Part shown: in pieces, positions 1,352-20,219 of the stretch | Layout of the letters: each line of letters begins with the position of its first letter | How positions within the stretch are numbered: position 1 is the stretch's first letter | From: a virus | Lineage: Duplodnaviria; Heunggongvirae; Uroviricota; Caudoviricetes | IMG/VR virus record: IMGVR_UViG_3300008108_000013 | Direction: 5' to 3' (one strand) | DNA length: 64,000 bases | The notes under the pieces: generated by a model | Seen by the model: only the letters and a program-made list of their open reading frames with translations | The model's database searches: none | Told to the model about the DNA's origin: nothing | Program-made: the position numbers and the translations under genes

Positions 1352-1368
1352 TTAAAACAGCACATAAT

Positions 1369-1392
1369 AGGCCCTACGGGGCCTATTTTTTT
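1369..1392 (+). terminator. rho-independent terminator
   Basis: AGGCCC-tacg-GGGCCT hairpin followed by a T8 run. Confidence 0.7.
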
Positions 1393-1426
1393 GGCCGTTT
1401 TGTGCGGGTGCGGTTTTCTTCGTTTG

Positions 1427-1436
1427 AATAAATACT
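1427..1436 (+). promoter_or_regulatory. T4-type late-promoter-like box AATAAATACT
   Basis: ATAAATAC lies 45 nt upstream of structural gene 1481. The same ATAAATACTG 10-mer recurs upstream of structural gene 41496. Confidence 0.4.
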
Positions 1437-1480
1437 GTGTATTGATCTAGACGATCTAAAGAAATAACGGAGAATAAGCA

Positions 1481-2605: not shown

Positions 2606-2627
2606 TAGCACTTATCACTTTAAATAA

Positions 2628-2676
2628 TCCCTAGTTTTAGTAGTGTTAAATACACACTACTTTCTAGGGATTTTTT
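2628..2676 (+). terminator. rho-independent terminator (two-part hairpin + T6)
   Basis: Outer stem tccctag/ctaggga (7 bp) and inner stem agtagtgt/acactact (8 bp) with a 7-nt loop taaatac, then TTTTTT immediately before ATG 2678. Confidence 0.7.
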
Positions 2677-2677
2677 A

Positions 2678-3400: not shown

Positions 3401-3401
3401 C

Positions 3402-5438: not shown

Positions 5439-6561
5439 ACAGAGTTTGATTTTCTTGTGGTAAATTAATTTTATCGATCTTATTAAAACTACGCCAATAA
5501 TCTGTGTGATCTAATTTACTAGTTTTAAAATGCAACGAAATAAAACGTCCTAGGTGGGCGTATAACCTACTCCATACCCGATTATACTTTTCAGCTCCTT
5601 GATTATCGTTGAGTAATCTGGCCAGCATTTTAACTGGAGCATGGATAATAAACAACCCTGTTGATTCGAGGGGATCTAAGAATCCTGCACTTAGTCCAAC
5701 CGCTACTACATTTTTCTTCCACGGTTCGGGATTATATTGATTAGAGAATGGAACTTCAAAAATTTTATCTTTCTTTAGGCCTGGAGTCTTTTTAATAAAC
5801 TCATCAACTGCTTGGTCAACACTAACGGCATCTTTGTTAAATGCATAGCCGTTGCCAGTTCGATGATCTAAACTAATTCTCCAACGCCAACCATAATCCA
5901 TTGCATAGGTTTGTGTGTAGTTTGCAGATGGTGCTGTGAAATCTCCAGGACCAGCTACAGCATAATTATTAATTAATCCGTCGTGCTTGACTAAGTTCTG
6001 TCCTAGTGGTTTTCTAATGATAGATCTAAATCCTGTACAATCAATGTATAAATCAGCGGTATACTTACCAGCTCTGCCAACTAAACATTTAACTCCATTT
6101 TCATCTAGTTGAACATCAAGTACATCATCGATGATGTGCTTAACACCTTTTGGAATACAAACAGTATCGCGTAAAGCAATTCCCAATCTAGTAGCATCTA
6201 CGTGATAAGCATGTCTCCACTTTTTAGTAGGCTTAGTTTTTGTTTCTAACCAATGTAACTGTTCTTCGTGTTCCGACTCGTCGAAACAAAAATGGTGCCA
6301 CCACTGATCGTTACCAGTAGTCCAGTTATTATGCTGGATGGTATATTTTCTGATAGCACTACATTTTTCAAAAAGATCTTGTTCAGAGAATCCAACGTCT
6401 TCCAAAAAGTCAACAATACTAGGAACTGTGCTTTCGCCTACTCCGATAATAGGAATATTGTCACTTTCTATGACAGAAATTTTACAGCTAGTTTTATTAG
6501 CAAGATATGCCGCTGCCATCCAGCCTGCACTGCCGCCACCGACTATTAGTATTGTTTTCAT
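5374..6561 (-). CDS. flavin-dependent (tryptophan-type) halogenase
   Basis: N-terminal GGGSAGW FAD-binding motif, GWRWRIS (variant of WxWxIP) and overall halogenase-like length of 395 aa. Confidence 0.75.
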   Translation of the reverse strand: MKTILIVGGGSAGWMAAAYLANKTSCKISVIESDNIPIIGVGESTVPSIVDFLEDVGFSEQDLFEKCSAIRKYTIQHNNWTTGNDQWWHHFCFDESEHEEQLHWLETKTKPTKKWRHAYHVDATRLGIALRDTVCIPKGVKHIIDDVLDVQLDENGVKCLVGRAGKYTADLYIDCTGFRSIIRKPLGQNLVKHDGLINNYAVAGPGDFTAPSANYTQTYAMDYGWRWRISLDHRTGNGYAFNKDAVSVDQAVDEFIKKTPGLKKDKIFEVPFSNQYNPEPWKKNVVAVGLSAGFLDPLESTGLFIIHAPVKMLARLLNDNQGAEKYNRVWSRLYAHLGRFISLHFKTSKLDHTDYWRSFNKIDKINLPQENQTLFNPYSFRQIANARGLPYTAER

Positions 6562-7733
6562 AATCTATATTCTTTATTAATTATATCGTTGACTCTGCCC
6601 ATTGGAATCTTAAACAACAAATGTGTTCTAGTTTTAGACCCTTGATTATGCGTAGCATGAGTTCTTTTCGTATTTATAAGGTAGGCCTTACCTGGTTGTA
6701 GATTATATTTCTTATCTCCAAATATAAAGTAAGATTTTTCGTCTACTTCTATAGGAAAGTGTATTCTTAAATGTGCATCTTTATCAATATGCGGAGGCAA
6801 CATAGAACCAGAAGTATGCGATGTAATTCCAAGTTCTTCAACATCATCAAATGTTTCTAATACCTTTTCGGCGAACCCGAAAACTAAAGGAGTTCTATTA
6901 GTAAATGCAGGTAGCTTTTCATCCTCAGGAGTTGAATCTTTTCCGCTAGGCGGGCTAATTGGTTTACTAGGATTTTTTAAATTACTTAATATACCGTATC
7001 CATGTATTGGGGAGGGTGTATCTAAAGTCCACTCGAGATGTACAAAGTCGTGTTTAACTTTAAAATAGTAGTCAGCTAACTCTTGATAGTTAAATTTAAT
7101 ATTAGGTAGCTCTAGTACATCAAAGTCAAATTGACTTTCATCTAGTAAGTACTCTCGATTTAATATTAAATCAATATCATCTTTATGTAGTTTAAAAATA
7201 AAATGAACTCTATCAGTATCACCTTCATTTTCAACTCCATGAGGTAGAGCTGTATTAATTAGATAGGCATGTCCTTCTTCTAGAACAAAGCTCTCATCTT
7301 CAAATTTAAAATAGCTTTTATCGTTTGCTTTGATAGGTATATGTATCTTAACAAACTCGTCGTTGTCCACATGCATATCGATACGTGTGCCTGGCGGATG
7401 GCCTGCAATTACTGTTTGTCTTACATCTGGAAATGCTTTAATAACTTTACGTGCAAAGCCAAATATCAAATCAGTTGGAACCTTAAAGTCGTTATTTGGG
7501 TGGACTTCGTTATCTTCTTTGACATGATAAGGCGGACAAGGTTTACTTGGATCTTTTAAATTGCTCTGTATAGCCCAGCTATACATATCGGCTACATTAT
7601 GTGTCTTAACATCAAAGTCCTTATCTACAGTCCACTTAAGATGCTGGTAATCGTTAACCACTTGATTGTAGTAATCAAGTAATTCTTTGTAAGAAAATTT
7701 TATATTAGATAATTTTATAACTTTAAAATCCAT
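6558..7733 (-). CDS. tandem-duplicated double AspH-like cupin oxygenase
   Basis: Two complete repeats within one ORF. Each has an N-terminal IKFxYxEL(L/A)DYY segment and an HxD...H cupin core (GHPPGTRIDMHVD..ALPHGVEN and SHTSGSMLPPHIDKD..RTHATHN). Confidence 0.6.
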   Translation of the reverse strand: MDFKVIKLSNIKFSYKELLDYYNQVVNDYQHLKWTVDKDFDVKTHNVADMYSWAIQSNLKDPSKPCPPYHVKEDNEVHPNNDFKVPTDLIFGFARKVIKAFPDVRQTVIAGHPPGTRIDMHVDNDEFVKIHIPIKANDKSYFKFEDESFVLEEGHAYLINTALPHGVENEGDTDRVHFIFKLHKDDIDLILNREYLLDESQFDFDVLELPNIKFNYQELADYYFKVKHDFVHLEWTLDTPSPIHGYGILSNLKNPSKPISPPSGKDSTPEDEKLPAFTNRTPLVFGFAEKVLETFDDVEELGITSHTSGSMLPPHIDKDAHLRIHFPIEVDEKSYFIFGDKKYNLQPGKAYLINTKRTHATHNQGSKTRTHLLFKIPMGRVNDIINKEYRL

Positions 7734-8176
7734 TATACACTCTTTAACATATCATAGACATTACTGTTTATTTCGTCATGTAAAACAGTATTATTAAATA
7801 ATTCACTTATATACATTTCAACTCCTCTGGATCTCGATCGTCCCTTAGCACAATAGATGTGTACTATAGATCCTTGTGGAATAGTTTCAATAAACTTTTT
7901 TAATTCTACTGCTTGTTCTTTGGAACAGGCATGAGCATAAATTATTCTTTGGTCATTATTAAACCAAGGTATAACTTTTAATCCTGTTTTATGTACATCA
8001 TCGAAATATAAATTAATTACGTTTCTATGTTCTTTTTTAAAATAAGGAATTCCGTGTATCCAGCCAGTTGCATTTATACAAATAAAATATTCGTTAAGTA
8101 ACTCAACATTACTGTCGTTGATGTCGGACATGGCCTCTTCAAAGGAGGATCGAGAATATCTTCTAACGTCTAGCAT
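7733..8176 (-). CDS. dual-specificity / tyrosine phosphatase-like protein
   Basis: CX5R P-loop VHIYCAKGRSRSRG with an upstream acidic YFDDVH. Confidence 0.55.
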   Translation of the reverse strand: MLDVRRYSRSSFEEAMSDINDSNVELLNEYFICINATGWIHGIPYFKKEHRNVINLYFDDVHKTGLKVIPWFNNDQRIIYAHACSKEQAVELKKFIETIPQGSIVHIYCAKGRSRSRGVEMYISELFNNTVLHDEINSNVYDMLKSV

Positions 8177-8741
8177 AAAATTCTAAAACACGATTTACTT
8201 TTTCTAATTTTTCGCCTGTTAAAAAATGTTTACCAATAAAGAATTTTAAATCTATATTGGACATTACAGGATTCCTTAACCAAAACTCTATAAGATCCTT
8301 TAGTTGATTTTTACTGATTCCCTCTTTACTATTTGATGTATCTTCAACTTCTGTTATAGTTAAGTGTAGCAGATTAGTTATATCTGTCTTTTTTTCTAAG
8401 GGAATCATCTTACAACGATCTTTTAACTCATGTTTAATTTTTGAATAGGGATCATTTATAGCCTGATAAAAATCTCCCGAAATACTTCCAATGACTAGCA
8501 TATTCGGAACCCACCCATATACATCTTCAAGTAGTTTAATTTGATAATCTTCTACACAGGCGCAATTAATAAACAAGTCTGCTGATCGTGCTTCTTTAAC
8601 TATTTCATCATAGTTGATTGTAAAATCGTATCCTGTAGTTCTACTAAGCTGTACAGTTCCTTCGAACATTTCGAATAACCATTTTCCCAAGAAGTGACTA
8701 GGATTTTCAGAAGACCCGCCGCCGGTCATAACTACTTTCAT
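8163..8741 (-). CDS. hypothetical protein with Rossmann-like N-terminus
   Basis: KVVMTGGGSS Gly-rich N-terminus. No further confident motifs. Confidence 0.3.
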   Translation of the reverse strand: MKVVMTGGGSSENPSHFLGKWLFEMFEGTVQLSRTTGYDFTINYDEIVKEARSADLFINCACVEDYQIKLLEDVYGWVPNMLVIGSISGDFYQAINDPYSKIKHELKDRCKMIPLEKKTDITNLLHLTITEVEDTSNSKEGISKNQLKDLIEFWLRNPVMSNIDLKFFIGKHFLTGEKLEKVNRVLEFYARR

Positions 8742-9394
8742 AGATATAATCCTTTAACATCGTCAGTCCATACTTTTCCATATAAATGTATTCTGTTCGA
8801 ACTACCTTTGTTTTCAACACTATGGGGCAAAGTAGTATTAACTAGATATGCCCACCCAGGTTCCATATGATATTCTTCTCCGTCGATAATCCAATTACTT
8901 TCAAGATTAGTATATATAGGTATGTGTACTCTAATCTTGTCAGGACTGTCTTGATGAGTTATTAACTTAGTTCCTGGTACGTGATCAGTGACTAACCATT
9001 TCTTACTTCGTATAGGCATCGATTGTACAATCTCAAGAGCATAGCCATAAAAGCATTTTCTTGGATTTAGTTTATCATTGTCGTTGTCTTGATACTCTGG
9101 TTTAGCCATTCCTTGCTCAAATGGCTTCGGGCCTGGCTCATCATTACTCCAACAAAGGGTATAGTAGCCTGTATCATCTGGCAATATGTGTCCTGTTGTA
9201 CCAGTCATATCAACGATAGGTTCTTGCCAGACGTGATGATTTTCACCGACTAAAAATTTCCAATCTCGATATTTCGTTTCTAAGTCTTTATACCATTGTT
9301 GCAGTTGTACAGCATCTACCTTAAACCAAGGTTTAACTTTAAATCCAAGATCGACAGAATCAAAGTTCTGTATATACCTTTTCATTTTAGTCAT
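8738..9394 (-). CDS. AspH-like 2OG/Fe(II) cupin oxygenase
   Basis: DHVPGTKLITHQD...RVHIPIYTN...LPHSVEN, the same architecture as 2678. Confidence 0.6.
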   Translation of the reverse strand: MTKMKRYIQNFDSVDLGFKVKPWFKVDAVQLQQWYKDLETKYRDWKFLVGENHHVWQEPIVDMTGTTGHILPDDTGYYTLCWSNDEPGPKPFEQGMAKPEYQDNDNDKLNPRKCFYGYALEIVQSMPIRSKKWLVTDHVPGTKLITHQDSPDKIRVHIPIYTNLESNWIIDGEEYHMEPGWAYLVNTTLPHSVENKGSSNRIHLYGKVWTDDVKGLYL

Positions 9395-10115
9395 TAGTTA
9401 AATCAATAACCTTTGTTAATTGCCAAGGAGCAATTCTAGTAATAATATGAGATCTAAATTCTTTAGACTCGTTGGATGTTCCGTGCCAGTCACCGGTGTT
9501 TAAGATATAAATTTTTCCTAGCTTCATATGGTATTCCCTTTCTTTATTTGGGCCAAAATGAAACTTTGCATTTTCATTTGTTTCTACAGGTATATGTAAC
9601 TTTAAAACTTTACTGTCGAGATGCTGTCTAATATACATACCTGGATGATGAGTAGTAATAATCATCTGTCTAAAAGAGTCTTCACCTAAAACAGATATCA
9701 TTTCTTCTAAGTACCCGAATTTCATTTTTGACATTATCTTAGCATCATCAAAAAACGTATTCCTATTAACTTCAGGAAATAACTCAAGATTGCATTGTTG
9801 CGGAGGCGGTAACGGCTCATATCTTTCTGTTGGCCAAGAAAAGGTAATCCCATCGATAGGACCGCAGTAGTAACCACAATATCCTTCTTCAACCATTTGT
9901 TTACTTAATTCTAAGTCTAACTTTTCCGAGTAGGTATTAAAATTAAATCGCATGTGAGAAAACTTCTCATTTACTTGAGAATACCACTCTGATAATTTAC
10001 TAGTATCGAGCGAATAGTTAAGTTCCAGTAAATCCCAATCATTAGACTCAATTAAAAATTCTTCGGTTATTCCGTGATTTTTGGGATCGTAGTCTTTGAT
10101 AATACGTGCTTTCAA
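9387..10115 (-). CDS. AspH-like 2OG/Fe(II) cupin oxygenase
   Basis: THHPGMYIRQHLD...LHIPVETN...GDWHGTSN. Confidence 0.55.
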   Translation of the reverse strand: MKARIIKDYDPKNHGITEEFLIESNDWDLLELNYSLDTSKLSEWYSQVNEKFSHMRFNFNTYSEKLDLELSKQMVEEGYCGYYCGPIDGITFSWPTERYEPLPPPQQCNLELFPEVNRNTFFDDAKIMSKMKFGYLEEMISVLGEDSFRQMIITTHHPGMYIRQHLDSKVLKLHIPVETNENAKFHFGPNKEREYHMKLGKIYILNTGDWHGTSNESKEFRSHIITRIAPWQLTKVIDLTND

Positions 10116-10153
10116 AATATTTCCTCGGTGATGGAATATTTATTAAATAGAAA

Positions 10154-11188
10154 ATGAGGTGCAAATATTTAGATAACCAAGTGTGCATAAGATCAAACGG
10201 ACAATACAGACTGTGTTGTGCGAGTTTAGAATCTGACAATTTAGAAAATGTTAGAACGCATACTATTGAAGAATGGCGTAACAGTCCAACACACGTTATC
10301 ACAAGACAACAGTTAGAAAATAATATTTGGCCGGATGCGTGTCTTAAATGTAAATTGGACGAAGATGCTGGTAGATCAAGCCAACGATTAAAAACTGCCG
10401 AATATGGCCCGGGACTAACACATTTAGATTTAAGATTTAGCAATAGTTGTAATTTATCTTGTAGTATGTGTTGGCCCGGAAGTTCTTCAAAATTAGTCGA
10501 AGAACACAAAGCATTGGGGGAGTTGTCACCTTGGGGAAGTTTAACCTTTGACCTAGTAAATTGGTACGAAGAAGATTTAGTCGGTAATCTAATTAAATCT
10601 GTTCCTGAATTAAAAGAGGTATACCTCACAGGTGGCGAACCTTTTATGGTTAAAGGCATATTAGACTTTTTAAAAAAGTTAGACGAGAACGTTACTGTAA
10701 GATTTAATACTAACGGTACTTTATACAATGATAAAATTTTTAAAGAATTAAAAAGATTTAAACACGTTAACATTAGTTTTTCCGTAGACGGAATTGGCAA
10801 AGTTAATGATTATATACGTTGGGGAAGTACTTGGAAAGAAATCGAATATAATATAAACAAGTATCAGGAACTTAGCGGTTTCTTTAGTGTTAGCTCTGTA
10901 GTACAAATTTTAAATATCCTTTACATTGATGAACTTAAAGAATGGGTTAAATCTCTAAACTTAGAACACTACGAAACATTCTTGTTGAATCCTAAGCATT
11001 ACTGCCTTTATAACGCTGTGGATGATATAAAAAATACAGTTAAGGGTTACGATCATATTAGAAATATAGAAGCAGATGTCTCAGAACAAAATAAATTTGT
11101 TGAATATACTAATATTTTAGATAACAATAGAAATTGTAAGATAAGAGATTACTTACCGGAGGTTGCAAAACTTTATGGTATTAATTAA
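10154..11188 (+). CDS. radical SAM enzyme, family A (N-terminal Cys-rich extension)
   Basis: CIRSNGQYRLCC ... ACLKCKLDE ... SCNLSCSMC (CxxxCxxC) ... TGGEP ... C-terminal NNRNCKIRDYLPEV. Paralog of 15500, 16788, 18942 and 38120. Confidence 0.7.
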   Translation: MRCKYLDNQVCIRSNGQYRLCCASLESDNLENVRTHTIEEWRNSPTHVITRQQLENNIWPDACLKCKLDEDAGRSSQRLKTAEYGPGLTHLDLRFSNSCNLSCSMCWPGSSSKLVEEHKALGELSPWGSLTFDLVNWYEEDLVGNLIKSVPELKEVYLTGGEPFMVKGILDFLKKLDENVTVRFNTNGTLYNDKIFKELKRFKHVNISFSVDGIGKVNDYIRWGSTWKEIEYNINKYQELSGFFSVSSVVQILNILYIDELKEWVKSLNLEHYETFLLNPKHYCLYNAVDDIKNTVKGYDHIRNIEADVSEQNKFVEYTNILDNNRNCKIRDYLPEVAKLYGIN

Positions 11189-11624
11189 AGAAAATAAAGA
11201 AAAACATAGATCAGTATTCTTCGACGGAGAAAATTATGTCAAGGTGTGGGGCAATACTACTCCGCAGTGGATATCAGAACATGTAAGTATTCTTAATGAG
11301 CTAGTTCCTAACTACGTAATCGAGTATGGCGGCAATTGGATAAAATTTAAAACCGTACAAGGAACACCTGCTAGCGAATTTGATCATACTGAGGAATTTA
11401 TTAACAGAGTCTATAATTTTTGTTTAGAACAAATTGAGAAAACATTGCCGTATGCACACGGTGATTGGGTGTTAAGCAACATAATTATAAAAGAAGATTC
11501 TATGTTTATGGTAGACTGGGATAATGTTGGAATTTACCCTAAAGAAGAAATATATAAAAAACTACACAATGATTTAAAAAGTGCCTTTGGAGAAAAATAC
11601 AAGTATGACACCACAGTCGTTTAG
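11163..11624 (+). CDS. mini kinase, APH/choline-kinase-like catalytic segment
   Basis: HGDWVLSNIII (HGDxxxxN catalytic loop) followed by VDWDNVG (DxD/IDWE-like motif). Only 153 aa. Confidence 0.4.
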   Translation: MQNFMVLIKENKEKHRSVFFDGENYVKVWGNTTPQWISEHVSILNELVPNYVIEYGGNWIKFKTVQGTPASEFDHTEEFINRVYNFCLEQIEKTLPYAHGDWVLSNIIIKEDSMFMVDWDNVGIYPKEEIYKKLHNDLKSAFGEKYKYDTTVV

Positions 11625-12822
11625 TTACCCAACATTAGGTAAAGACGGATTAATTTATTGTCCGCCATACGGTTTAGACGAACCTATGGATTTTATGATT
11701 ACAATAAATCCTAAAACTTTTGATATTCAGAAACTCCCTATTAAGGTTAACAACAGTACAGAAAAATGGACATTTGGAATTACTGTAGATGATAAGATCT
11801 ATTGGTTGCCTTACGGCGAAAGCAAAGTGTTAGTAGTCAATACAACAACAAAGAAGGTCGATTACATTGATATTGATTGGCCTGATAATACAAAAAGCAT
11901 CAAAGGCAAATTTGTTCAAGGACACATTTATAAAAATAAAATTTATGCATTACCTTATGGCGAAGACCAACCACTTGACTACGTATTAATAATAGATACA
12001 ACTACTGATAACGCAGTCCTTAAACCCCTACACTTGCCTGATACCGATACTAAAAAATGGCATCAAAGTGTGTTGCGTGGTAATACAATATATGCTGTAC
12101 CTCGAGGTGGCTCTAAACCGTTTAATTTTGCAATCGAATATAATTGTGACGACTGTAGTGTTAAGTTTATAAACTTTAGCAAATACTATGAAGGGTATCA
12201 AGATACTAGCATGAAGTTTACAACTATAGGTATGATCGACGATATAATCTATGCGGCTCCGTATGGTTACCACGATGATTTTGATTTTTTAATTACAAAT
12301 AAAAAAGGTGAATGGAAATCGGAAAGAACTGGTATAACAGGAACAACAAGAAGATACTTCACTAACATCAAGACAAAAAATGAAAAATTATATTTTCCTC
12401 CTGCAGGCCATCACTCATCATGGAGTAAATTTTTAATCATCGACAGCAATGGCTATAAAACTATAGATCTTGGAATAACAAAGGAAACTAAAAAATACTT
12501 CGCAGGAGTTGAAAATAGCCAAGGCAAAGTCTATTATATTCCCCGAGGCGGATGTGTTTGTGATCCAGATGCCGAATTAAAATTAACCGGAGACCTAGCA
12601 GAAGTATTAGTATTTGATACTAAAGACGATAGTTACTATACTGTCGACGTAAGCAGTTGCTTCACTGATAATACAACTATAGAAAAGTACAATGCCTGTT
12701 GTATTGTCGATGACGTAATATTTGCTATGCCGTACGGTGAAAGCAATTCTTTTCAAACTGTATTAGTTTTTGATACAACACAAGATAAAATTATTAAAAC
12801 GATAGATCTAAATGGCATATAA
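11581..12822 (+). CDS. PYG-repeat protein (beta-propeller-like), paralog 1
   Basis: At least 8 repeats of about 45 aa with the core (I/L)Y(x)(x)P(Y/R)G(E/G)xxx and a trailing DTTT/NTTT (e.g. IYWLPYGESKVLVVNTTT, IYALPYGEDQPLDYVLIIDTTT). The start is uncertain; ATG 11605 is an alternative. Confidence 0.5.
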   Translation: MPLEKNTSMTPQSFSYPTLGKDGLIYCPPYGLDEPMDFMITINPKTFDIQKLPIKVNNSTEKWTFGITVDDKIYWLPYGESKVLVVNTTTKKVDYIDIDWPDNTKSIKGKFVQGHIYKNKIYALPYGEDQPLDYVLIIDTTTDNAVLKPLHLPDTDTKKWHQSVLRGNTIYAVPRGGSKPFNFAIEYNCDDCSVKFINFSKYYEGYQDTSMKFTTIGMIDDIIYAAPYGYHDDFDFLITNKKGEWKSERTGITGTTRRYFTNIKTKNEKLYFPPAGHHSSWSKFLIIDSNGYKTIDLGITKETKKYFAGVENSQGKVYYIPRGGCVCDPDAELKLTGDLAEVLVFDTKDDSYYTVDVSSCFTDNTTIEKYNACCIVDDVIFAMPYGESNSFQTVLVFDTTQDKIIKTIDLNGI

Positions 12823-13963
12823 AGCGTTCCAAGATTTTTATTTAGAAGAATCAATTAAACATCTGTTGTTAACAGAGTATAATGGCTGTTTAGTAAGTCC
12901 TCCCTTTGCTACAGAAAAATGCAAAGACTACAATCAAATTATGATCATCGGAAATGATGTGTCGTTTATTGATTTAGATTTGCCGCCTGCAACTAGCAAG
13001 TTTAATGCTTATACTGTGATAGGAGACAGTCTTTGGCTAATACCGTATGGTATCTGGGATAACTTTAATGTCGTGGTACAATTAAAAGATTTTAAACCTA
13101 TATATCATTATATCGATAAACCAGGAAAAGGCCAATTTTATAATGTAGCATCTAATGGCGAAACTGCTTTTAGTTTTCCTTTAGGGTACGAAGATACAAG
13201 TTTTGGGATCTTTATCAGGGATCAACAAGTCCATACAGTTGAATTTGAAAAACAATCTCAAACAAAATTACACATGGGCTGTGTATATGCAAATGGAAAA
13301 TATTGGAGTGCTCCTAGAGGTGACGAACCTGGCTATGTTAATATGATGAGTTTTGATGGCGAACAGTTAAAGTCGTATCCTATCAACTTGCCTAATCCTA
13401 ACATTACTAGAAAATACACCGATATTATTGTTAAAGGAAACACATTGTATGCTATGCCGTTTGGAGAACAACCGGGTTTGATGGAAGTTATAGAGTTTGA
13501 TACTGTTAGTGAAAATTACAAACTTCACAAACTGAATATGCCAGACGTTGCAAAAAAGTTTAACTGTATGGTAGAAGTTGATGAATATATTATCGGACTA
13601 CCTTACGGAACAAAAGGCGATACAAACAGTCGCTGGGGTATATCTTTTAATACTACAACTAACGATTCTGCTTGTTTTGACTTAGGGGAAGATTTTGCCG
13701 ACGGTGGAAAATATCGTTTTAGATGCGGAGTTAATTTTAATAACAATGCTGTATTTTTTCCTGCTGGTACTCCTGACTGTCCAATAGTTAAAGTCAGTAA
13801 AGACTTAACAATTACTACAAAGCACATTGAGGGCGTTATGTTTGGTAGACCTATTGTACATGACAATAAGTTAAAAGTCTTAGGTTATGATATGCGCGAT
13901 GCTACTAACTCGCTTTATGAGTTTGATGAGAGTTTAAATTACTCTAAAACCTTTTTAAGATAA
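12812..13963 (+). CDS. PYG-repeat protein (beta-propeller-like), paralog 2
   Basis: LWLIPYGIWDNF, YWSAPRGDEPGY, LYAMPFGEQPGL and IIGLPYGTKGDT repeats. Confidence 0.5.
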   Translation: MAYKAFQDFYLEESIKHLLLTEYNGCLVSPPFATEKCKDYNQIMIIGNDVSFIDLDLPPATSKFNAYTVIGDSLWLIPYGIWDNFNVVVQLKDFKPIYHYIDKPGKGQFYNVASNGETAFSFPLGYEDTSFGIFIRDQQVHTVEFEKQSQTKLHMGCVYANGKYWSAPRGDEPGYVNMMSFDGEQLKSYPINLPNPNITRKYTDIIVKGNTLYAMPFGEQPGLMEVIEFDTVSENYKLHKLNMPDVAKKFNCMVEVDEYIIGLPYGTKGDTNSRWGISFNTTTNDSACFDLGEDFADGGKYRFRCGVNFNNNAVFFPAGTPDCPIVKVSKDLTITTKHIEGVMFGRPIVHDNKLKVLGYDMRDATNSLYEFDESLNYSKTFLR

Positions 13964-14844
13964 ATGTCGCTAAGACAACTACATTTATTAGTACCGCAGA
14001 CAATCGGACTGTTAGGGAGTATAAAAGAATCTATAGTTCCAATCTTGCCGCCTTGCTGACAATCTGCTCGATAAACATCTCCCCACTGATCAATACTAAC
14101 CATATGCTGTCCTGCCCAGCATTTCCATCCTTTGAAGTTATTAAGACCCTTTAGTATTAAATCGTTACCCGATACTCGCTGTCCGTCTAATGCTATTTCA
14201 CCTCGATGCATCTTGTAGTCATTAACTGATCTAAAATAAGGCCACTGGTTTATGATTCTTCTTTGTTGTTCTGTGTAATCAGCAACTTCATTAGAGATGT
14301 GATTTATATCGCTTTTATCTAAAATAACTTTTGGCCATACAATAACATTAGGTGATCCGTTATACAACTTATCAGCTACTGCTAGTAGCTCATCAAATTT
14401 ATCAGGCACTAGCATTAGGTTGACTGCTACTACTCCTTTAATTGTTTGAGCAACATTAACGCAATGATCAACATCAGCATACTCTGGATGGTAGCTAAGT
14501 ATCATGCCATCAGTATAGTTACTAATAGATTTAAAATATTCAACACTTTGACTGCCGTTAGTTAAAAAGCTAAAAGTATGGCCTTGTTCTTTAACTACTT
14601 TAGCCATGTCAATAAAGTGTTTCCAATAAGTCGGTTCACCGCCGCTGATTCGATAGCAAATTTCCTTGCCCGGCAAATTAAAATTTTCTATAAATCTCTT
14701 AACTGATTCCCAAGTCGGCCAACCTGAACTACCATCATGCAAATTGCTAGGGCAATAACTACACCTATAATTACATTTGTTTGATAGTGTCCAGCTGACT
14801 AGAAACCAATCTTCTTTTTTAGGATCGAGATAAGTTAATTTCAT
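13939..14844 (-). CDS. radical SAM/SPASM-like enzyme, family B
   Basis: SNKCNYRCSYCPS (CxxxCxxC), ISGGEPTYW, HPEYADVDH and a C-terminal Cys cluster (CWAG..CQQGG..CGTNKCSC). Confidence 0.7.
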   Translation of the reverse strand: MKLTYLDPKKEDWFLVSWTLSNKCNYRCSYCPSNLHDGSSGWPTWESVKRFIENFNLPGKEICYRISGGEPTYWKHFIDMAKVVKEQGHTFSFLTNGSQSVEYFKSISNYTDGMILSYHPEYADVDHCVNVAQTIKGVVAVNLMLVPDKFDELLAVADKLYNGSPNVIVWPKVILDKSDINHISNEVADYTEQQRRIINQWPYFRSVNDYKMHRGEIALDGQRVSGNDLILKGLNNFKGWKCWAGQHMVSIDQWGDVYRADCQQGGKIGTIDSFILPNSPIVCGTNKCSCLSDIYLKKVLE

Positions 14845-15503
14845 TAGTACACATTCATTCCGTGTTTAAGGATAATATCATGTGTACGTTGATTTAATTT
14901 AACTGTTAATATCATTGAATAGACACTATCAGTAAAACTAAACACAGAATGTTCTCTTTGGAAATTAGCAAAGTAAAAATAGCCAGGATCAAAGTACAAC
15001 GGTTTACCATCAAGTAACTGTACATAGTTCTCCGGCTTGCACTTTCCAAATGTCATTATAAGGCGTAGGTATTCTGGTGCAGGGCCTGGATAGTCTACGT
15101 GCGGCGGAAAGAACCCGCCAGCATCTAATTTTAAAAAATGTACACGACCGATATCTGGTCTAAAAATATCAACTACTTGCTGTATCTCAGGAAGTGCATG
15201 ATATACTTGTGTTGGCGTTGTGAAGTTATCATCTTTTAAATCAACATCATGATAATTTTGTAAGTAACCAAAACTGTTTAAGTGATAGTTATCCATGACA
15301 TCGCCTGTGTGGCTAGTTACAGGTAACCCCCACCTATTATTGTGCGTATCTTTTTTTAAGTTATAAGGGCACCAGTTATCTTTAAATTGTAAAAGGTCGT
15401 GCTCTAACTTCAATGGTTCGACACGAAGTTTTAATTTAAGGTACAGACCTAAGTTTGTTAGGCTGTGCCATAGCAACCCTCTTTCAATTTCTTCATTAGT
15501 CAT
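14844..15503 (-). CDS. cupin 2OG/Fe(II) oxygenase-like protein (divergent AspH-like)
   Basis: GRVHFLKLDAGGFFPPHVD ... FQREHSVFSF (HxD...H). Confidence 0.45.
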   Translation of the reverse strand: MTNEEIERGLLWHSLTNLGLYLKLKLRVEPLKLEHDLLQFKDNWCPYNLKKDTHNNRWGLPVTSHTGDVMDNYHLNSFGYLQNYHDVDLKDDNFTTPTQVYHALPEIQQVVDIFRPDIGRVHFLKLDAGGFFPPHVDYPGPAPEYLRLIMTFGKCKPENYVQLLDGKPLYFDPGYFYFANFQREHSVFSFTDSVYSMILTVKLNQRTHDIILKHGMNVY

Positions 15504-16795
15504 AATATTTTTAAGTCCGGAAAAATTTTCCTAAAATCTGTATTCCTTGTTTGGTCACATATTTCTAAATACTCAACAGTACTAGGTAATTTAGAAGACC
15601 AGTCTTCGGACATCATGTATCCGATTAATCCTTCCCAACGCTGTTTTCCGTATGTGTTATTTACAAAACCAGGATCTTGGTACTCATTTAAAAAGGCTTC
15701 AATCCTAGATTTTGCCAATTGTTTTAACTCTAACGGCAAAACTTTAACATTTAAATAGCTTGGTAAGTACACCAAATGCAATCCGATAACACCGCCACCA
15801 TATGGATATAGATTAATCTTTTTAAAGTTAGATTGAATCTTCCAGCGAGCTAGATCAGTTATGTATAGGACATTTAGTAACTGAACAGCGCAGGCAACAT
15901 TTATAGTAATATGATCAGGTGTATTGTCTAACTTATTCAAGTTTGTAACAACGTCTGCCCACTTACTAGGATAACGAATGTAGTCATTGTGTTCACCAAG
16001 TGCATCTATACTAAAATTAAACTTAACCTGTTTGAATTGATTCCAAAGATCAAACAACTTGTCAGGTAGCTCTAAACCGTTTGAGTTGTATCTTAATATA
16101 CAGTTCTTAGCATGTCCACTTTCTACCATGAACTCTAATATTTTATAGTGCTCGGGTATTAGTAAAGGTTCACCACCGGCAAAGTACAACTCTTTGATAT
16201 TGTGTGCTTGAGCCTTCATGTTTTCTAAGAAGGCGCTATCCTTATACCAGGTGTAATCAAATGTTCTATCCCAACCTTGATCTTGTTTAAGCTCAACAGT
16301 CTTATACTTAGGATACTGTTGTTTCCAATCTTTAATCCAGCTTGAACTATCGTGTGGACTACACATGACACATTTTAGTTGACATAAGTTACCCAAACGC
16401 AAGTCGAAGTAGGGTATATCAACAGGTAATGTTCCGTCTGAACCTGTCTTAGTAACAATGCTATCAATATCAACACGATCCTTCCATACCATAGTTTCCC
16501 ATTGACGTTTACTTGTGATACCTTTACTTTCTTCTTCAAAACATTTAGTACAACTATTCGGAACTTCACCATTAAGCATTTGTAAACGAGTTGTCTTCAT
16601 GCTTTCGCTATTCCATACTTCGTCTATAGAATGCTTTGCTAAGTTTAAAACCTGTCCTTGGTGTTTAACTAATCCTGCTTCTTTGTCGTCAACTATTCCT
16701 GCACCGCTAGCATTGGCCGTGCAACATACTCTTACATCACCGTTTGGTCTTGTAGCGATATGAATCCAAGGAAGTGGGCAAAAGGTCTTACTCAA
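15500..16795 (-). CDS. radical SAM enzyme, family A
   Basis: MSKTFCPLPWIHIATRPNGDVRVCC, NSCTKCFEEE, GNLCQLKCVMC, AGGEP and C-terminal QTRNTDFRKIFPDL. Confidence 0.75.
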   Translation of the reverse strand: MSKTFCPLPWIHIATRPNGDVRVCCTANASGAGIVDDKEAGLVKHQGQVLNLAKHSIDEVWNSESMKTTRLQMLNGEVPNSCTKCFEEESKGITSKRQWETMVWKDRVDIDSIVTKTGSDGTLPVDIPYFDLRLGNLCQLKCVMCSPHDSSSWIKDWKQQYPKYKTVELKQDQGWDRTFDYTWYKDSAFLENMKAQAHNIKELYFAGGEPLLIPEHYKILEFMVESGHAKNCILRYNSNGLELPDKLFDLWNQFKQVKFNFSIDALGEHNDYIRYPSKWADVVTNLNKLDNTPDHITINVACAVQLLNVLYITDLARWKIQSNFKKINLYPYGGGVIGLHLVYLPSYLNVKVLPLELKQLAKSRIEAFLNEYQDPGFVNNTYGKQRWEGLIGYMMSEDWSSKLPSTVEYLEICDQTRNTDFRKIFPDLKIL

Positions 16796-18104
16796 AAAGC
16801 TCTCCTAGTTCTGGAGTAACATCTAAAATGTTTTGATTGCGGCGCTGGTCGATAACTTTTGTAAATCTAACAAACTCAGGAATACGTTCTTGTGATAGAT
16901 CTTCCTGATCCATGAAGTTTAAAATTGATTTTAGTATAGAAACTGATGCAGACTTTACATTGTCATTTAGATCACTTTCTAAGAATTTGTTAATCCAGCT
17001 ATCGTAATGTAACTTTAATTTATTTCTTATAGACTCTGGATACATCCTAACACTAACACAATATGGTTTGTGTACAGGGTGTGTAGTTATAACAGGTCTT
17101 TTCTCTCTAGAATTAATTTTTTTAAATCCGCTATCAACTAATTTCCACCACATAAATTCCGGCAAGTGAAAAGCATTGTAGGCACTAACAGTGTATGTTA
17201 TATGGACCATAACGTTAGGATTTTGTTGACATATCTCATCTAGCTGTATTAAGTTCTTAAGGGTAGTATTCCATTTAATAGGATATCGTTGATACTCTTG
17301 CATAGACCCCATGCCGTCAACGCTGGCACCTATTCTAACTTGTTTAAACTGTGTCCAAAGTTCTAAAACTTTTTTCGGTAATGATGTGATATTTGTATTA
17401 TATTCTAGGATTATTTTTGAAGCTCGACCAGCGGCAATACACTTTTCTAAGAATAGAGTATGCCTATCTATAATTAAAGGCTCTCCGCCTGCCATGTAAA
17501 CGTGTTCAATATTATTAATTTGTTCTTCTATCTGCTGCCAAAAGAATTCTGACTCGTGCCAGTTGTAATCATCAGTGACAAACCTTCCTTTGTCGTTCCT
17601 TATCAAATGGACCCACCCGTGACTATCTAAGAACCCCTGCTTTTGATCATACGCAACCCAATCCTCATACCACGAGTGGCTGTCTGTTGGCCCGCACATA
17701 CGACAGGCAAGATTACAGGTGTTACCGAATCTTAAATCGTAATAGCGAGTATCTAAGTTTATACTCCCATCATCGTTTGTACTGTTTACTGCATCTTCGT
17801 AAGTAAAGTTCCACTGATCAATTTCGTTAAGACGTCTGCTAGACATACCAGATTCTTCTTCTTGCTGGCATCTTTTACATTCATCACTCCACACACCATT
17901 AATAATATTCTTCCGAATCTCTTTAATCATGATAGCATTTTTAGCATCAACTATAGAATCTTTACCTGCATTAAAGGGTGTTCCATCATCTTTTCTTGCA
18001 GTTCCTTGATTAGGAGTCACGTTGGCTTGGCAACAAACACGCATGTCGCCATTGTTGCGTACTGCTTGATGTATCCAAGGTAAAGGACAGAATGTTTTAG
18101 ACAT
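16788..18104 (-). CDS. radical SAM enzyme, family A (tandem paralog)
   Basis: MSKTFCPLPWIHQAVRNNGDMRVCC, DECKRCQQEE, GNTCNLACRMC, AGGEP and C-terminal QRRNQNILDVTPEL. Confidence 0.75.
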   Translation of the reverse strand: MSKTFCPLPWIHQAVRNNGDMRVCCQANVTPNQGTARKDDGTPFNAGKDSIVDAKNAIMIKEIRKNIINGVWSDECKRCQQEEESGMSSRRLNEIDQWNFTYEDAVNSTNDDGSINLDTRYYDLRFGNTCNLACRMCGPTDSHSWYEDWVAYDQKQGFLDSHGWVHLIRNDKGRFVTDDYNWHESEFFWQQIEEQINNIEHVYMAGGEPLIIDRHTLFLEKCIAAGRASKIILEYNTNITSLPKKVLELWTQFKQVRIGASVDGMGSMQEYQRYPIKWNTTLKNLIQLDEICQQNPNVMVHITYTVSAYNAFHLPEFMWWKLVDSGFKKINSREKRPVITTHPVHKPYCVSVRMYPESIRNKLKLHYDSWINKFLESDLNDNVKSASVSILKSILNFMDQEDLSQERIPEFVRFTKVIDQRRNQNILDVTPELGELFE

Positions 18105-18954
18105 TAAGTAGATACCTCATAAGAGAACTTATTCCCACTAGCTCTCCGCTTCTATCTATAGCTACATGGATAGCCTTAGTCTGAGTTAGATCGAAGTCCC
18201 TGCAGACTTTTTCATTCACGTCAGCATATTTTTTCCAAAAGTAATCTGGTTCAATATTGTTTAAGATATAAAGTGCAACGATTGTGGTCATTCGATTGCA
18301 CATATGAAAGTCATTCATTATGCTAATAGAGTCGGCTTTCTCTTCTTTAGTCCATCTTAAACCAATTCTATTCCAACCCAGTCCTAGACCTTTTGAAAGG
18401 CTGATGCCTAGTGATACAATAGCAGGATGATCAAAATTAAAATCAATTGTGCGGCTACATGTAATCCATGCTCCGTCGACATGCACAGGAATATTTTTTT
18501 TGGCACATTCATCTAAAATTCCATTCATGCCTGTATGAATATCAGCAGTACCTGGAAAAGGTAAAGAAATTATTAAAGGAATTCCGGGGATCAATGTGCC
18601 GGGTATAGATCTTGTAAAAGAATAACCTAATCTTTCGTGATACTTATAATCACCTTCAATTGTCTGTACGTACCCGGACATATATAAATTATCAATAAAC
18701 TGTGTACATCCGTTAATTATATCGACTCTGTTAAAGGTTTCAAGTCCTCTTATTTGATTCAAGGTCGACGCAGTTAACCAACTAATCATTTTATCTTTAA
18801 AAATATTATGTACGTTATCCGTGTGATCAGGCACCCAACCGTTATAACCAGTTAATGTTGAATTAAACAATGACTCAAGATGACTATCGCAAAAAGGTTT
18901 TAATCTACCTTTTTGTAAATAATCTTGAGAATATTCAGGTGCTATTCTTTCCAT
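18097..18954 (-). CDS. PLP-dependent aminotransferase-like protein (short)
   Basis: SLSKGLGLGWNRIG matches the SxSK...GxRxG PLP-lysine region of fold-type I aminotransferases. The protein is only 285 aa. Confidence 0.4.
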   Translation of the reverse strand: MERIAPEYSQDYLQKGRLKPFCDSHLESLFNSTLTGYNGWVPDHTDNVHNIFKDKMISWLTASTLNQIRGLETFNRVDIINGCTQFIDNLYMSGYVQTIEGDYKYHERLGYSFTRSIPGTLIPGIPLIISLPFPGTADIHTGMNGILDECAKKNIPVHVDGAWITCSRTIDFNFDHPAIVSLGISLSKGLGLGWNRIGLRWTKEEKADSISIMNDFHMCNRMTTIVALYILNNIEPDYFWKKYADVNEKVCRDFDLTQTKAIHVAIDRSGELVGISSLMRYLLNV

Positions 18955-20219
18955 TCTAACATCATCTCATAACACTTTGGAAATACTTCTTTCCAATTAA
19001 TATTTTGTAAACTAGACATCTTAAAGAAAAAGTCTTTAAGATCCTTTCGTCCTTGGATTATTTCATCAACGGTTATAGGCATTTTATTTGCGTACAATTC
19101 CCATTGGTTTAATTTAGAAAGTATCTCCGTATCTGTTGTTTTAGATCGTAGATAGACGAACATCCTATTTCTTTGATCCTCAGACAGTAATCCTATATTT
19201 AAATATTTAGGATTCATAACCGGATGACTTACTACACCAGCAAATGTATCTTTATTAATCTTTTTAAAATTCTTATTCTTTAACCAAAGCATCCAATCGA
19301 CTATGTTTTCTAAATTTAAAATCGAAACCGTAGTACTGGTAAAAACAGTAATATTAGCTGGCGTACTGTCAAGTATATCTAAATTCTTTTCTACAACTTT
19401 CCAAGGTGTTGGATATCGTATCGCATGGTTAACATCTGCTGTTCCGTCAACACTGGCACACAACTTAACTATTTTAAAATTTGAAAATAAATTAAAAATA
19501 TAATCGGGTAACACAGTTACATTAATACTATACTCTAATTCAATATCATTGGCAAATCCATTACTAATAAGTGCCTCTAATAAAGCAACGTGTTCTTTAA
19601 CTAGGAATGGTTCGCCGCCACCGAATTTAATCTTTTTAACAAACATCGAATGTTTAGCAACTAACTCGTAATACTCTTTTTGGTTGGCCCAATCAAATAC
19701 CTTTGTGTCGTCGATTGAATATGACACATCATCGATAGAAAAGATACGCTTACCTGTTACCTTTTCTTGTATCTTATACCATTGATTACTTTCTCCAGGA
19801 TAACACATAACACATTGTACGTTACACTTATTACCTAATCGAAGATCTAGGGATAAGATACGGTATTCAGATACTGTGCCGTCAGGGGCAGTGATTGCTC
19901 TAGCGTCTTCTTTGGTAAAATCATACATAGTCGATTCCCATTGATTCCGACTACGTTTACCTGCTTCGCTTTCGATACGACATCGTCTACATTGTTCGGG
20001 CCATTCATTGTTTAAAAATTTAGCACGAACTTCTTTCAACGTTTCGCAATTACTGATATCAAATTTTAAATCGTCAATAGTTAATATCTTTTCGTTCTGC
20101 GTTAACACAGTTTTCTTATTGCCGCCGCTTTGGCTGTGAGAGCATAGTCGCAGATGTCCATTACTTTTAACAGCAATATGACTCCACGGCAACGGACACC
20201 ATTTATCTAAATTGCTCAT
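18942..20219 (-). CDS. radical SAM enzyme, family A
   Basis: MSNLDKWCPLPWSHIAVKSNGHLRLCS, EQCRRCRIES, GNKCNVQCVMC and GGGEP. ATG 20219 is preferred because it matches paralogs; the track start is 20237. Confidence 0.7.
   Translation of the reverse strand: MSNLDKWCPLPWSHIAVKSNGHLRLCSHSQSGGNKKTVLTQNEKILTIDDLKFDISNCETLKEVRAKFLNNEWPEQCRRCRIESEAGKRSRNQWESTMYDFTKEDARAITAPDGTVSEYRILSLDLRLGNKCNVQCVMCYPGESNQWYKIQEKVTGKRIFSIDDVSYSIDDTKVFDWANQKEYYELVAKHSMFVKKIKFGGGEPFLVKEHVALLEALISNGFANDIELEYSINVTVLPDYIFNLFSNFKIVKLCASVDGTADVNHAIRYPTPWKVVEKNLDILDSTPANITVFTSTTVSILNLENIVDWMLWLKNKNFKKINKDTFAGVVSHPVMNPKYLNIGLLSEDQRNRMFVYLRSKTTDTEILSKLNQWELYANKMPITVDEIIQGRKDLKDFFFKMSSLQNINWKEVFPKCYEMMLEWKE

Follow-up and report, generated by a model that had tools for sequence, protein, structure and literature searches.

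Two adjacent genes of a tailed phage, here called A and B, are predicted with high confidence to encode compact, stand-alone, eight-bladed beta-propellers. They define a new, unnamed, phage-restricted propeller family whose blade pattern resembles Kelch repeats, and they close a four-gene operon of overlapping genes that runs from an N-twitch radical SAM (rSAM) enzyme through a mini-kinase-like protein to A and B (Table 1). Within the window, i.e., the whole 64,000-nucleotide stretch of DNA that was analysed, this operon sits, as a fixed component, in a ~21-kb island that comprises rSAM enzymes, AspH-type cupins, and a halogenase; the island is carried by an uncultured clade of jumbo-type myoviruses. 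A preliminary description of the same DNA had delimited both open reading frames correctly and had proposed that their products are precursors or substrates of the RiPP type, modified by the neighbouring rSAM enzymes, or alternatively beta-propeller lectins. Confident AF2 models bear out the beta-propeller alternative as to the fold, whereas the function implied by the words lectin and scaffold is plausible only. From fold, synteny, and conservation, we tentatively read A and B as a non-catalytic ligand-binding or adaptor pair, and we give this reading somewhat less than an even chance.

Each gene of the operon overlaps the next: the stop of rSAM 10154 overlaps the ATG 11175 of the kinase-like gene by 14 nt, independent gene calls give a 20-nt overlap between the kinase-like gene and A, and the stop of A overlaps the start of B by 11 nt, both in the window and in all 39 measurable loci. 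The ATG at 11605 (M9) is the probable start of A, which would then be 405 aa long: alignments with homologues begin at residue 8-9, and this ATG is preceded by a GGAG. Read from the sequence, B and the convergent rSAM 13939 share 25 nt at their 3' ends. A and B do lie on the plus strand between minus-strand blocks, as had been described, and the plus-strand block also contains the rSAM and kinase-like genes. Scans for sigma-70-like promoters and terminators returned counts at shuffle expectation, and the T4 late-promoter motif TATAAATA was found 2 times against 7.8 expected and was absent near the operon.

Table 1. Genes of the operon, its downstream neighbours, and features of propeller A (nucleotide positions in the window unless given as aa)
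Feature	Position	Strand	Remarks
N-terminal-twitch radical SAM enzyme, operon gene 1	10154..11188	+	344 aa; Pfam Radical_SAM, SPASM
Mini protein-kinase-like/APH-like protein	11163..11624	+	153 aa; probable start ATG 11175
Propeller A, predicted Kelch-like, eight-bladed beta-propeller	11581..12822	+	413 aa as listed
A, predicted blades 1-4	about aa 11-53, 57-97, 109-149, 157-198		
A, predicted blades 5-8	about aa 207-249, 257-296, 300-356, 364-409		
A, P-R-G-G-C-x-C-x-P loop opening the blade-7 insertion	12541..12567 (aa 321-329)	+	invariant
Propeller B, predicted eight-bladed beta-propeller paralogous to A	12812..13963	+	383 aa; final blade degenerate
Radical SAM enzyme, convergent downstream	13939-14844	-	Pfam Radical_SAM
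Probable AspH-like cupin	14844-15503	-	hhalign to island cupin 8738 family

The repeats were reported as about eight of ~45 aa in each protein. This count holds for A, which has eight h-Y-x-x-P-[Y/R/A]-G units (aa 29, 77, 125, 174, 227, 274, 321, and 384) spaced by 47-63 aa. B has seven clear units, six of the PxG form at aa 78, 123, 168, 216, 264, and 317 and one PPF variant at aa 31; its eighth, R346-P347, is degenerate. The repeat length in both is rather ~47-50 aa. The repeat that had been quoted as an example, IYALPYGEDQPLDYVLIIDTTT, corresponds to A residues 121-142. The repeats are above chance level: a blade HMM built solely from blades of the B family picks up A blades 2, 3, 5, and 8 at 9.8-23.5 bits, and one built from A only picks up three B blades as well as 13 repeats of an unrelated tail-fibre protein, against a top score of 4.7 bits in shuffled controls (n=400). 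Aligned to each other with hhalign, A and B match in register over 345 columns (98.4% probability, E = 4.9e-15), which confirms the reported paralogy and shows that it extends over their whole length. No tandem repeat was found at the DNA level, so the repeats are ancient and visible at the protein level only. A and B are indeed the sole repetitive proteins in the window, but other island proteins lack an enzyme annotation too: six further island ORFs (3402-4232, 4797-5438, 7733-8176, 8163-8741, 18097-18954, and 22165-22758) gave no family match.

The AF2 models of A and B have pLDDT values of 88.8 and 90.5, respectively, and a pTM of 0.89 each. In these predicted models, the blades are four-stranded, antiparallel, and radial, in keeping with the 44-56-aa blades expected of Kelch propellers. 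Within a blade of ~48 aa, strand A is preceded by a basic-aromatic 'KK[W/Y/F]', 'IYxxP' forms strand B, 'P-x-G' with an acidic residue begins the B-C loop, 'VLVID' forms strand C, and a Thr-rich turn connects strands C and D. The motif elements thus map onto strands and loops, and the repeat motif noticed earlier is fold architecture. Its h-Y-x-x-P-[Y/R/A]-G part was recovered, whereas its 'D/N-TTT' element, which belongs to the poorly conserved C-D turns (the lowest of all classes), is not kept across homologues. The fold match is predicted confidently, yet to no single known propeller family: structural matches share 5-14% identity, and the best of them are non-catalytic scaffolds. A confident match to a known propeller family with no conserved modifiable residue had been named as grounds for dropping the precursor proposal; we found the confident fold, no one family, and conserved Cys, His, and Tyr residues.

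Kelch propellers (Keap1/KLHL substrate-adaptor domains, NanM, and galactose oxidase) are like A and B in their four-stranded blades of ~45-50 aa, in the basic residue before strand A, in a hydrophobic-Tyr strand B that runs into a tight turn, in a hydrophobic strand C ending in Asp, and in conserved D-A and B-C loops, which are the usual Kelch binding face. They differ in that the Gly-Gly doublet after strand B is P-x-G in A and B, that they usually have five to seven blades rather than eight, and that A and B stand alone, without a BTB, F-box, or catalytic partner domain, and themselves match no Kelch Pfam model. Eight-bladed scaffolds (BamB, Fbw7/Cdc4 WD40 phosphodegron receptors, Sqt1, and the d1-domains of NirF/NirN/cd1) resemble A and B at the level of the fold only, at the identities given above, and A and B have no WD, PQQ, or d1 motifs and no evident haem or PQQ ligands. 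A link to haem d1 or PQQ, suggested by the NirF/NirN and PQQ-dehydrogenase matches, was rejected: these matches have 7-12% identity and no cofactor motifs, and reflect an eight-blade fold effect. Beta-propeller lectins (tachylectin-2 and the PLL/BP39L type) have aromatic, basic, and acidic loop residues recurring from blade to blade on one face, a pattern that A and B may share, and have five to seven blades, in contrast to eight in A and B.

Neither A nor B matched Pfam, PHROGs, or NCBIfam, and for the Pfam Kelch models this held at a cutoff as loose as E <= 1. Weak matches to the Kelch models occur in A-family homologues, in 17 of 30 to PF24681 (best E = 4e-7) and in three to PF25210; the PF24681 match on homologue P0093 is labelled 'faint' in the precomputed table of the collection. 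A PDB sequence-profile search with the A family gave one marginal match only, to a chain that its PDB file calls OR464. The cultured-phage collection had no DNA or tblastn match to the locus and encodes no relative of A. Each paralogue has ~300 clusters. A propeller family that no Pfam, PHROG, or NCBIfam model recognises in the window is thereby defined, together with its fixed partners, a ~150-aa kinase-like protein and N-twitch rSAM enzymes.

The first of these partners has the hallmarks of a kinase fold, namely an H-x-D-x4-N catalytic loop, a D-x-D/E metal motif, and an N-lobe lysine in ORF 11163-11624; K27, H99-x-D101-W-x-L-S-N106, and D118-W-D120-N121 are invariant among 16 diverse homologues. 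Sub-threshold Pfam matches among these homologues are to APH (14 of 16, best E = 6.9e-6) and RIO1 (11 of 16). For the window protein, no kinase Pfam model scores above its gathering score (16-18 bits against cutoffs of 22-29), and a PDB profile search gave weak matches to protein-kinase domains, SalKC, and OspG. The rSAM enzyme encoded at 10154-11188 scores 243 bits (cutoff 170) against NCBIfam NF033640, N_Twi_rSAM. Of the island's unannotated proteins, the one encoded at 14844 alone resembles a cupin, its family aligning with that of island cupin 8738 over 160 columns in hhalign (68% probability, E = 4.7e-5).

Gene order ties the propellers to these partners. Across 87 related phage loci, every non-truncated locus has A and B collinear with the kinase-like gene. 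The kinase-like gene adjoins propeller A in all of these and also in a divergent module, L090, which keeps the kinase, one propeller, and the rSAMs although its kinase and propeller are only ~21-23% identical to those of the window. In most related loci, the kinase-like gene is immediately preceded by a homologue of rSAM 10154. Downstream, the rSAM 13939 and cupin 14844 pair follows B in all related phage loci with the downstream flank present; orthologues of the two occur in 85/87 and 84/87 loci, with median identities of 60% and 66%, respectively. Loss of the rSAM genes from related genomes had been named as evidence against the precursor proposal. In phages the opposite is seen: rSAM genes accompany the pair in all 88 loci (87/87 and L090) and lie directly downstream of it wherever the flank was captured.

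This co-occurrence, the repetitive character of A and B amid many rSAM/SPASM-type enzymes, and the weak matches of the kinase-like partner to SalKC and to chains named 'Protein kinase domain-containing protein' are what favours multi-core RiPP precursors, in which the rSAM enzymes would cross-link or otherwise modify every repeat as a core peptide before its release. We consider this explanation highly improbable. RiPP cores are short and disordered, whereas the repeat of A and B is a folded 48-aa blade; the models are confidently globular, and the repeat periodicity is that of four beta-strands. Blades differ from one another and lack one repeated identical core, and their conservation across homologues is blade-specific. 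There is neither a leader nor a cleavage-site pattern, and no peptidase, transporter, or exporter family was found among the scanned island ORFs, several of which are without annotation. Tail fibres and sensor proteins with no relation to rSAMs contain this repeat type too, and cellular loci hold the rSAM core without such proteins, as described below. Repetitive proteins beside rSAM enzymes need not, then, be RiPP precursors, and a tempting mis-annotation is removed.

Cellular orthologues of the island's rSAM core were found at 78 loci, mostly in Bdellovibrionota; those of rSAM 15500, 20203, and 22749 have 35-50% identity. In none of the 78 was a propeller or kinase present within 8 kb on either side. 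The kinase-plus-propeller unit is a phage-specific add-on to the rSAM core. Hence, the pair is phage-specific and not a universal substrate of the core enzymes, and its co-occurrence with rSAM genes is one-directional, since bacteria have rSAM orthologues without propellers. A GTDB scan with two peptide patterns, by which only close relatives are detectable, returned no relative of A. The island therefore divides into an rSAM core common to bacterial chromosomes and a phage-specific set of kinase-like gene, propellers, cupins, and halogenase, and this split offers an experimental handle on the eight to twelve radical-SAM genes of some large aquatic phages.

Faces and loop classes of A and B were assigned via DSSP topology. 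B-C loops are the best-conserved structural class, with 51-55% of positions at least 90% conserved, compared with 19-25% in strands and 10-13% in C-D turns, and the face that bears the D-A and B-C loops is significantly more conserved than the opposite one (top against bottom face, p = 0.018 for A, p = 3e-5 for B). In most blades, conserved K/R, W/Y/F, Y, and E/D residues are repeated in these two loop classes, where they could be structural; the conserved residues shared by every blade are structural Pro, Gly, and Lys only. In A, the invariant, blade-specific residues are H161, R175, H277, R322, C325, C327, E302, and E368, and K304, K305, and K369 are invariant as well; in B, K63, Y79, Y126, R169, Y265, and R302 are invariant, and the conserved loop residues are distributed across seven blades. 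The loop that opens the blade-7 insertion of A belongs to the B-C class and has a lower local pLDDT (57-66); among 30 homologues of 50-74% identity, none departs from P321, R322, G323, G324, C325, or C327, and P329 is retained in at least 90%. Loop conservation of this kind, with His, Cys, Arg, Glu, and Tyr among the invariant residues, would suit an active site just as well. Streptide-type (KxxxW) and three-residue cyclophane motifs in 'KKW' were rejected by inspection because the flanking positions vary between blades, and the Thr-rich turn was rejected as a kinase target because it is among the least conserved positions.

Loops that are better conserved than core strands, together with the blade-specific invariant residues of A, raise the question of whether A and/or B are enzymes that catalyse a step of the island pathway at the conserved loop face. 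Propellers of this kind have precedents in Kelch-type sugar mutarotases, copper radical oxidases, and propeller lyases, hydrolases, and alkylating enzymes, and almost all other identified genes of the island encode enzymes. We nevertheless regard catalysis as unlikely, while giving it real weight: neither sequence nor structure produced a specific enzyme-family match, the low-identity best hits being non-catalytic scaffolds, and the spread of conserved loop residues over the blades of B looks multivalent, unlike a single pocket.

A further explanation makes A and/or B full-length protein substrates, whose maturation by phosphorylation, hydroxylation, or cross-linking would fall to the kinase-like protein together with the neighbouring rSAM and cupin enzymes specific to the phage. 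Some radical-SAM enzymes are known to act on whole proteins, among them sulfatases, ribosomal protein S12, and glycyl-radical enzymes. The strict co-occurrence and the overlapping genes tie the pair to the kinase-like protein and the rSAMs, and the invariant CxC loop lies in the lower-confidence blade-7 insertion. Rates of evolution bear on this as well. Within the clade, median identity is 49-51% for the propeller pair and 45-67% for the neighbouring enzymes, so A and B are not hypervariable there. Between distant lineages, the enzymes diverge more slowly than the kinase-like protein and the propeller, and such faster change is frequent in substrates of tailoring enzymes; this fits a specificity module and would also fit a co-evolving substrate. 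Against the substrate explanation, the rSAM core common to bacteria works without any propeller, which leaves no more than the phage-specific enzymes as potential modifiers of A or B, only structural Pro, Gly, and Lys are conserved in each blade, and the Thr-rich turn is weakly conserved. On balance, we hold it to be quite improbable.

Distant relatives raise yet another explanation, that A and B are virion-associated lectins or receptor-binding proteins, i.e., tail-fibre accessories or decoration proteins that recognise host glycans. The same repeat, in 13 copies, forms the distal part of the tail-collar fibre P0269, and tachylectin Pfam matches occur in the distant relatives P0252, P0269, and P0271 only, with no lectin or tachylectin family match for A or B themselves. 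The distant relatives also comprise proteins with Kelch motifs, as well as fusions to ankyrin repeats or to Zeta-toxin/NACHT domains. Host-recognition clusters of marine myophages have also been reported to contain rSAM cassettes (PMC7029224). This role seems improbable to us. Both proteins lack fibre-anchoring and collar domains as well as, judging by the sequence, an N-terminal signal peptide; the operon lies between rIIB and replication/nucleotide-metabolism genes, outside any structural module. Moreover, the pair is no more variable within the clade than its enzyme neighbours and is always overlapped with the kinase-like gene and the rSAM gene.

In the binding or adaptor reading that we favour, A and B would work jointly, probably as a hetero-complex that forms a non-catalytic binding platform. 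The conserved face of the D-A and B-C loops, where Lys, Arg, Tyr, Trp, and His abound, may capture a ligand and keep it in place for the partner kinase and for the neighbouring tailoring enzymes specific to the phage; the ligand could be a glycan, a sugar-phosphate, or a phosphorylated peptide or protein. In favour of this reading, the repeat type serves as a binding module in the distant relatives, and A and B are not hypervariable within the clade. The pair would thus be the target-recognition part of a phage version of the pathway. Fbw7/Cdc4, in which a basic top face is coupled to kinase-dependent ligand recognition, may serve as a working analogy for a partnership between propeller and kinase. 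In one case, a single 3.1-kb metagenomic contig, A and B are fused in frame through a short linker with no separate B start.

A broader proposal, which we consider doubtful, is that the kinase-like protein and twin propellers are a phage-invented targeting module grafted on a bacterial-type multi-rSAM tailoring pathway. That pathway would be one common to predatory Bdellovibrionota, possibly glycan-directed, and during infection the module would turn its chemistry on a macromolecule of the host or of the phage. Taken furthest, the proposal would have the neighbouring phage-specific enzymes, rSAM and cupin, mature the propellers themselves into a modified, cofactor-like, or cross-linked protein. 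Family-2 glycosyltransferases lie beside the rSAM orthologues in 21 of the 78 cellular loci and in no phage locus, and the glycan connection is therefore a lead only.

The abundance of radical-SAM genes in large aquatic phages has been noted in the literature without explanation. Cyanophages of the Syn9 type have tandem arrays of dioxygenase and tryptophan-halogenase genes (Iyer et al. 2010, PMC2938197). In marine T4-like genomes that are rich in rSAM genes, these number up to 12 (Nishimura et al. 2017, PMC5332604). The excerpts of these two accounts that were available describe no kinase-plus-propeller unit, whereas the enzyme palette that they describe, of dioxygenases, Trp-halogenase-like proteins, and rSAM enzymes, is the same as that of the island in the window.

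Two neighboring open reading frames (ORFs), A and B (see table), encode paralogous eight-bladed propellers of a new phage-restricted family. The preliminary description had noted PYG repeats in both, and a unit-by-unit listing confirmed them: A has eight hydrophobic-Y-x-x-P-[Y/R/A]-G units (aa 29, 77, 125, 174, 227, 274, 321, and 384), and B opens with a PPF variant, continues with six clear P-x-G units, and ends in a degenerate one. A blade hidden Markov model (HMM) built from B only detected four A blades (9.8-23.5 bits), and an A-only HMM detected three B blades and 13 repeats of an unrelated protein. With a best score of 4.7 bits among 400 shuffled sequences, these cross-validated HMMs place the predicted blade repeat above chance. 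We found no tandem repeat at the DNA level and no blade repeat in other ORFs of the window. The proposed paralogy also held: BLASTP of A against B returned several out-of-register alignments (best E = 1e-9), and a profile-profile comparison of the two families matched them over their full length and in register (98.4% probability, E = 4.9e-15, 345 columns), which points to duplication of a complete gene. A homologs start at residue 8-9, M9 is almost invariant, and GGAG lies upstream of ATG 11605, most likely the start codon of A.

Window coordinates of the two propeller genes
Feature	Coordinates	Strand	Product
Propeller A	11581-12822	+	413 aa
Propeller B	12812-13963	+	383 aa; adjoins A

Neither protein matched Pfam, PHROGs, or NCBIfam. 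Their homologous clusters (295 for A and 273 for B) come exclusively from metagenomes, are nearly all of the same length, and carry no functional name; a Kelch-repeat domain model matched 17 of 30 diverse A-family members weakly (best E = 4e-7). AlphaFold2 with family alignments gave confident all-beta models (pLDDT 88.8 for A and 90.5 for B; pTM 0.89 each), with eight groups of four strands each. In each blade, a basic-aromatic KK[W/Y/F] motif leads into strand A, IYxxP forms strand B, P-x-G plus an acidic residue opens the B-C loop, and VLVID forms strand C, followed by a Thr-rich C-D turn and strand D. This pattern parallels the Kelch repeat, with P-x-G where Kelch has a Gly-Gly doublet. 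In fold, A and B belong to a known class, the beta-propellers, and their repeats follow a Kelch-like pattern. Of the earlier suggestion of a beta-propeller lectin or scaffold, structure prediction supports the fold, and the function is plausible.

We classed residues by DSSP topology and scored conservation per class. In both families, conservation peaks in the B-C loops (51%-55% of positions ≥90% conserved), where it exceeds that of strands (19%-25%), and is lowest in C-D turns (10%-13%). With faces assigned by topology rather than model coordinates, conservation is higher on the D-A plus B-C face than on the one across from it (p = 0.018 for A; p = 3e-5 for B). Conservation in A centers on blades 4 and 6-8, including an invariant P-R-G-G-C-x-C loop, and in B extends across blades 1-7. 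From fold, synteny, and conservation, we infer that A and B work jointly as a pair of binding or adaptor proteins without catalytic activity. On its conserved loop face, the pair would hold a ligand for the kinase and phage-specific tailoring enzymes; this could be a glycan, a sugar-phosphate, or a phosphorylated peptide or protein. That A and B are themselves propeller enzymes is the likeliest of four rival explanations.

A and B lie in an island (about 2.7-23.7 kb of the window) that carries at least eight radical-SAM (rSAM) genes. Three of these belong clearly to NCBIfam NF033640 (N-terminal twitch rSAM). Also present are a Trp-halogenase-like gene, an AMP-binding fragment, and four to five AspH-type cupins. 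A and B close a plus-strand four-gene operon (rSAM 10154-11188, an NF033640 member; a 153-aa protein; A; B) whose genes overlap by 14, 20, and 11 nt in order. Conserved residues of the 153-aa protein (K27, H99-x-D101-x4-N106, and D118-W-D120-N) make up the catalytic signature of the protein-kinase-like/APH fold; its matches in Pfam and PDB are sub-threshold. A 250-aa ORF antisense to rSAM 10154-11188 (10048-10800, minus strand) is low-complexity and Ser/Leu/Pro-rich, which argues that it is almost certainly not a gene. The 3' ends of B and the minus-strand rSAM 13939-14844 overlap convergently by 25 nt (13939-13963), with no terminator-like structure between the two genes. G+C content in the island center (8001-14000) is 0.33-0.35, below most of the window (0.37-0.45). 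At 4229-5438 (plus strand), a 215-aa ORF covers just the middle of the AMP-binding (adenylating enzyme) domain, and a 213-aa ORF that lacks annotation overlaps the end of the first. Related loci L001 and L003 show the same split, which suggests a possible split or truncated adenylating enzyme.

Across 87 related loci (7 from encoding-contig look-ups and 80 from IMG/VR), every uncut contig keeps the kinase-like gene, A, and B collinear. An rSAM gene lies upstream in most, and a convergent rSAM and cupin-like pair lies downstream wherever that flank was captured. A and B were detected in 85-86 of the loci, and their 11-nt overlap is identical in 39/39 measurable cases. Median identity is 49%-51% for A/B versus 45%-67% for enzyme neighbors; A and B are conserved to the same degree as those enzymes. 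Overlapping A, B, and mini-kinase-like genes are a unit fixed within an rSAM/cupin/halogenase island. That the propellers are full-length protein substrates of the adjacent enzymes ranks third among the rivals. In one contig (L088, 3-2171; JGI 3300018421, Ga0181592_10056304), A and B are naturally fused in frame through a short linker (LDLN-YILSSK-YKAF) with no B start codon left, and an Asp_Arg_Hydrox gene replaces the rSAM gene directly after B. A distant, compact, and divergent module (L090; Logan SRR27364936_2190056, 213-10685) retains an rSAM, a kinase-like gene, another rSAM, and a single propeller, and adjoins orthologs of the window's convergent enzyme block. It encodes a 188-aa APH/choline-kinase-like protein, five rSAMs, and ThyX; its enzymes are 37%-55% identical to those of the window, versus ~21%-23% for the kinase-like protein and propeller. 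The kinase and propeller unit is kept yet evolves faster than the enzymes, and the A/B duplication is confined to the window's clade. L090 could serve as a minimal experimental system.

The association with rSAM genes raised in the preliminary description holds in related phage loci but is one-way. Homologs of the island N-twitch rSAM (45%-50% identity) occur in 78 cellular loci, mostly on megabase-scale Bdellovibrionota contigs, together with orthologs of rSAM 20203, rSAM 22749, x_22165 (an ORF without family match), and often rSAM 16788. No propeller (blade HMM) or kinase-like gene lies within 8 kb on either side, so this unit is absent from the cellular versions. Orthologs of the island rSAM core (15500, 16788, 20203, 22749, and x_22165; 15500-23723, minus strand) are 35%-50% identical (L092-L169) and cluster on chromosomal contigs of these predatory bacteria and in a few other MAGs, which suggests phage/bacteria gene exchange or a host link. 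In Bdellovibrio sp. HCB2-146, four family-2 glycosyltransferases and a GNAT acetyltransferase are interspersed among the core rSAMs; family-2 glycosyltransferases adjoin rSAMs in 21/78 cellular and 0 phage loci, a partial glycan link. The preliminary description had favored repetitive, rSAM-modified RiPP precursors. Multi-core precursors of this kind conflict with the confident globular fold, with blade-specific conservation, with the absence of a leader and, among the island ORFs scanned, of a protease or exporter, and with propeller-free cellular rSAM clusters; this lead is unsupported and the least likely rival.

An exhaustive profile search returned 486 proteins at E ≤ 1e-3; in GTDB, a scan with just two peptide patterns, which reach close relatives only, detected no relative of A. 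The nearest relatives outside A/B carry the blade repeat as a module of larger proteins: a tail-collar fiber with 13 repeats (P0269), tachylectin- or Kelch-motif proteins, an ankyrin fusion, and a Zeta-toxin/NACHT fusion. Two, one in a phiKZ-like phage and one in a RING/F-box context, have no rSAM genes nearby. A virion-associated lectin or receptor-binding role for A and B is the second likeliest rival to the adaptor reading.

Published work describes tandem dioxygenase and halogenase arrays in cyanophages (Iyer et al., 2010; PMC2938197), 12 rSAM genes in a single marine T4-like genome (Nishimura et al., 2017; PMC5332604), and rSAM cassettes in pelagimyophage variable regions (Zaragoza-Solas et al., 2020; PMC7029224). 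We found no description of a kinase-plus-propeller unit in the literature searched. The window derives from a large myovirus. Its products include rIIB, an ATP-dependent DNA ligase, an endonuclease, and a tail-fiber-like protein. The rIIB is nearest, among cultured phages, to those of jumbo phages XacN1, Xoo-sp13, and RsoM2USA (309-385 kb), and A/B homologs occur on contigs as long as 356 kb. In the whole window, the T4-type late-promoter motif TATAAATA occurs twice versus 7.8 times expected from shuffles, and this phage is unlikely to use the canonical T4 late promoter. An additional rSAM gene (38120-39499, plus strand; PHROG 14086) lies outside the island, amid replication and structural genes. 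A 4087-aa ORF without any Pfam family (47906-60169, plus strand) precedes one (60445-63999, plus strand) that extends beyond the window and starts with a major-tropism-determinant N-terminal domain (Mtd_N); in L001, a 356-kb contig, the island is likewise flanked by an Mtd_N protein.
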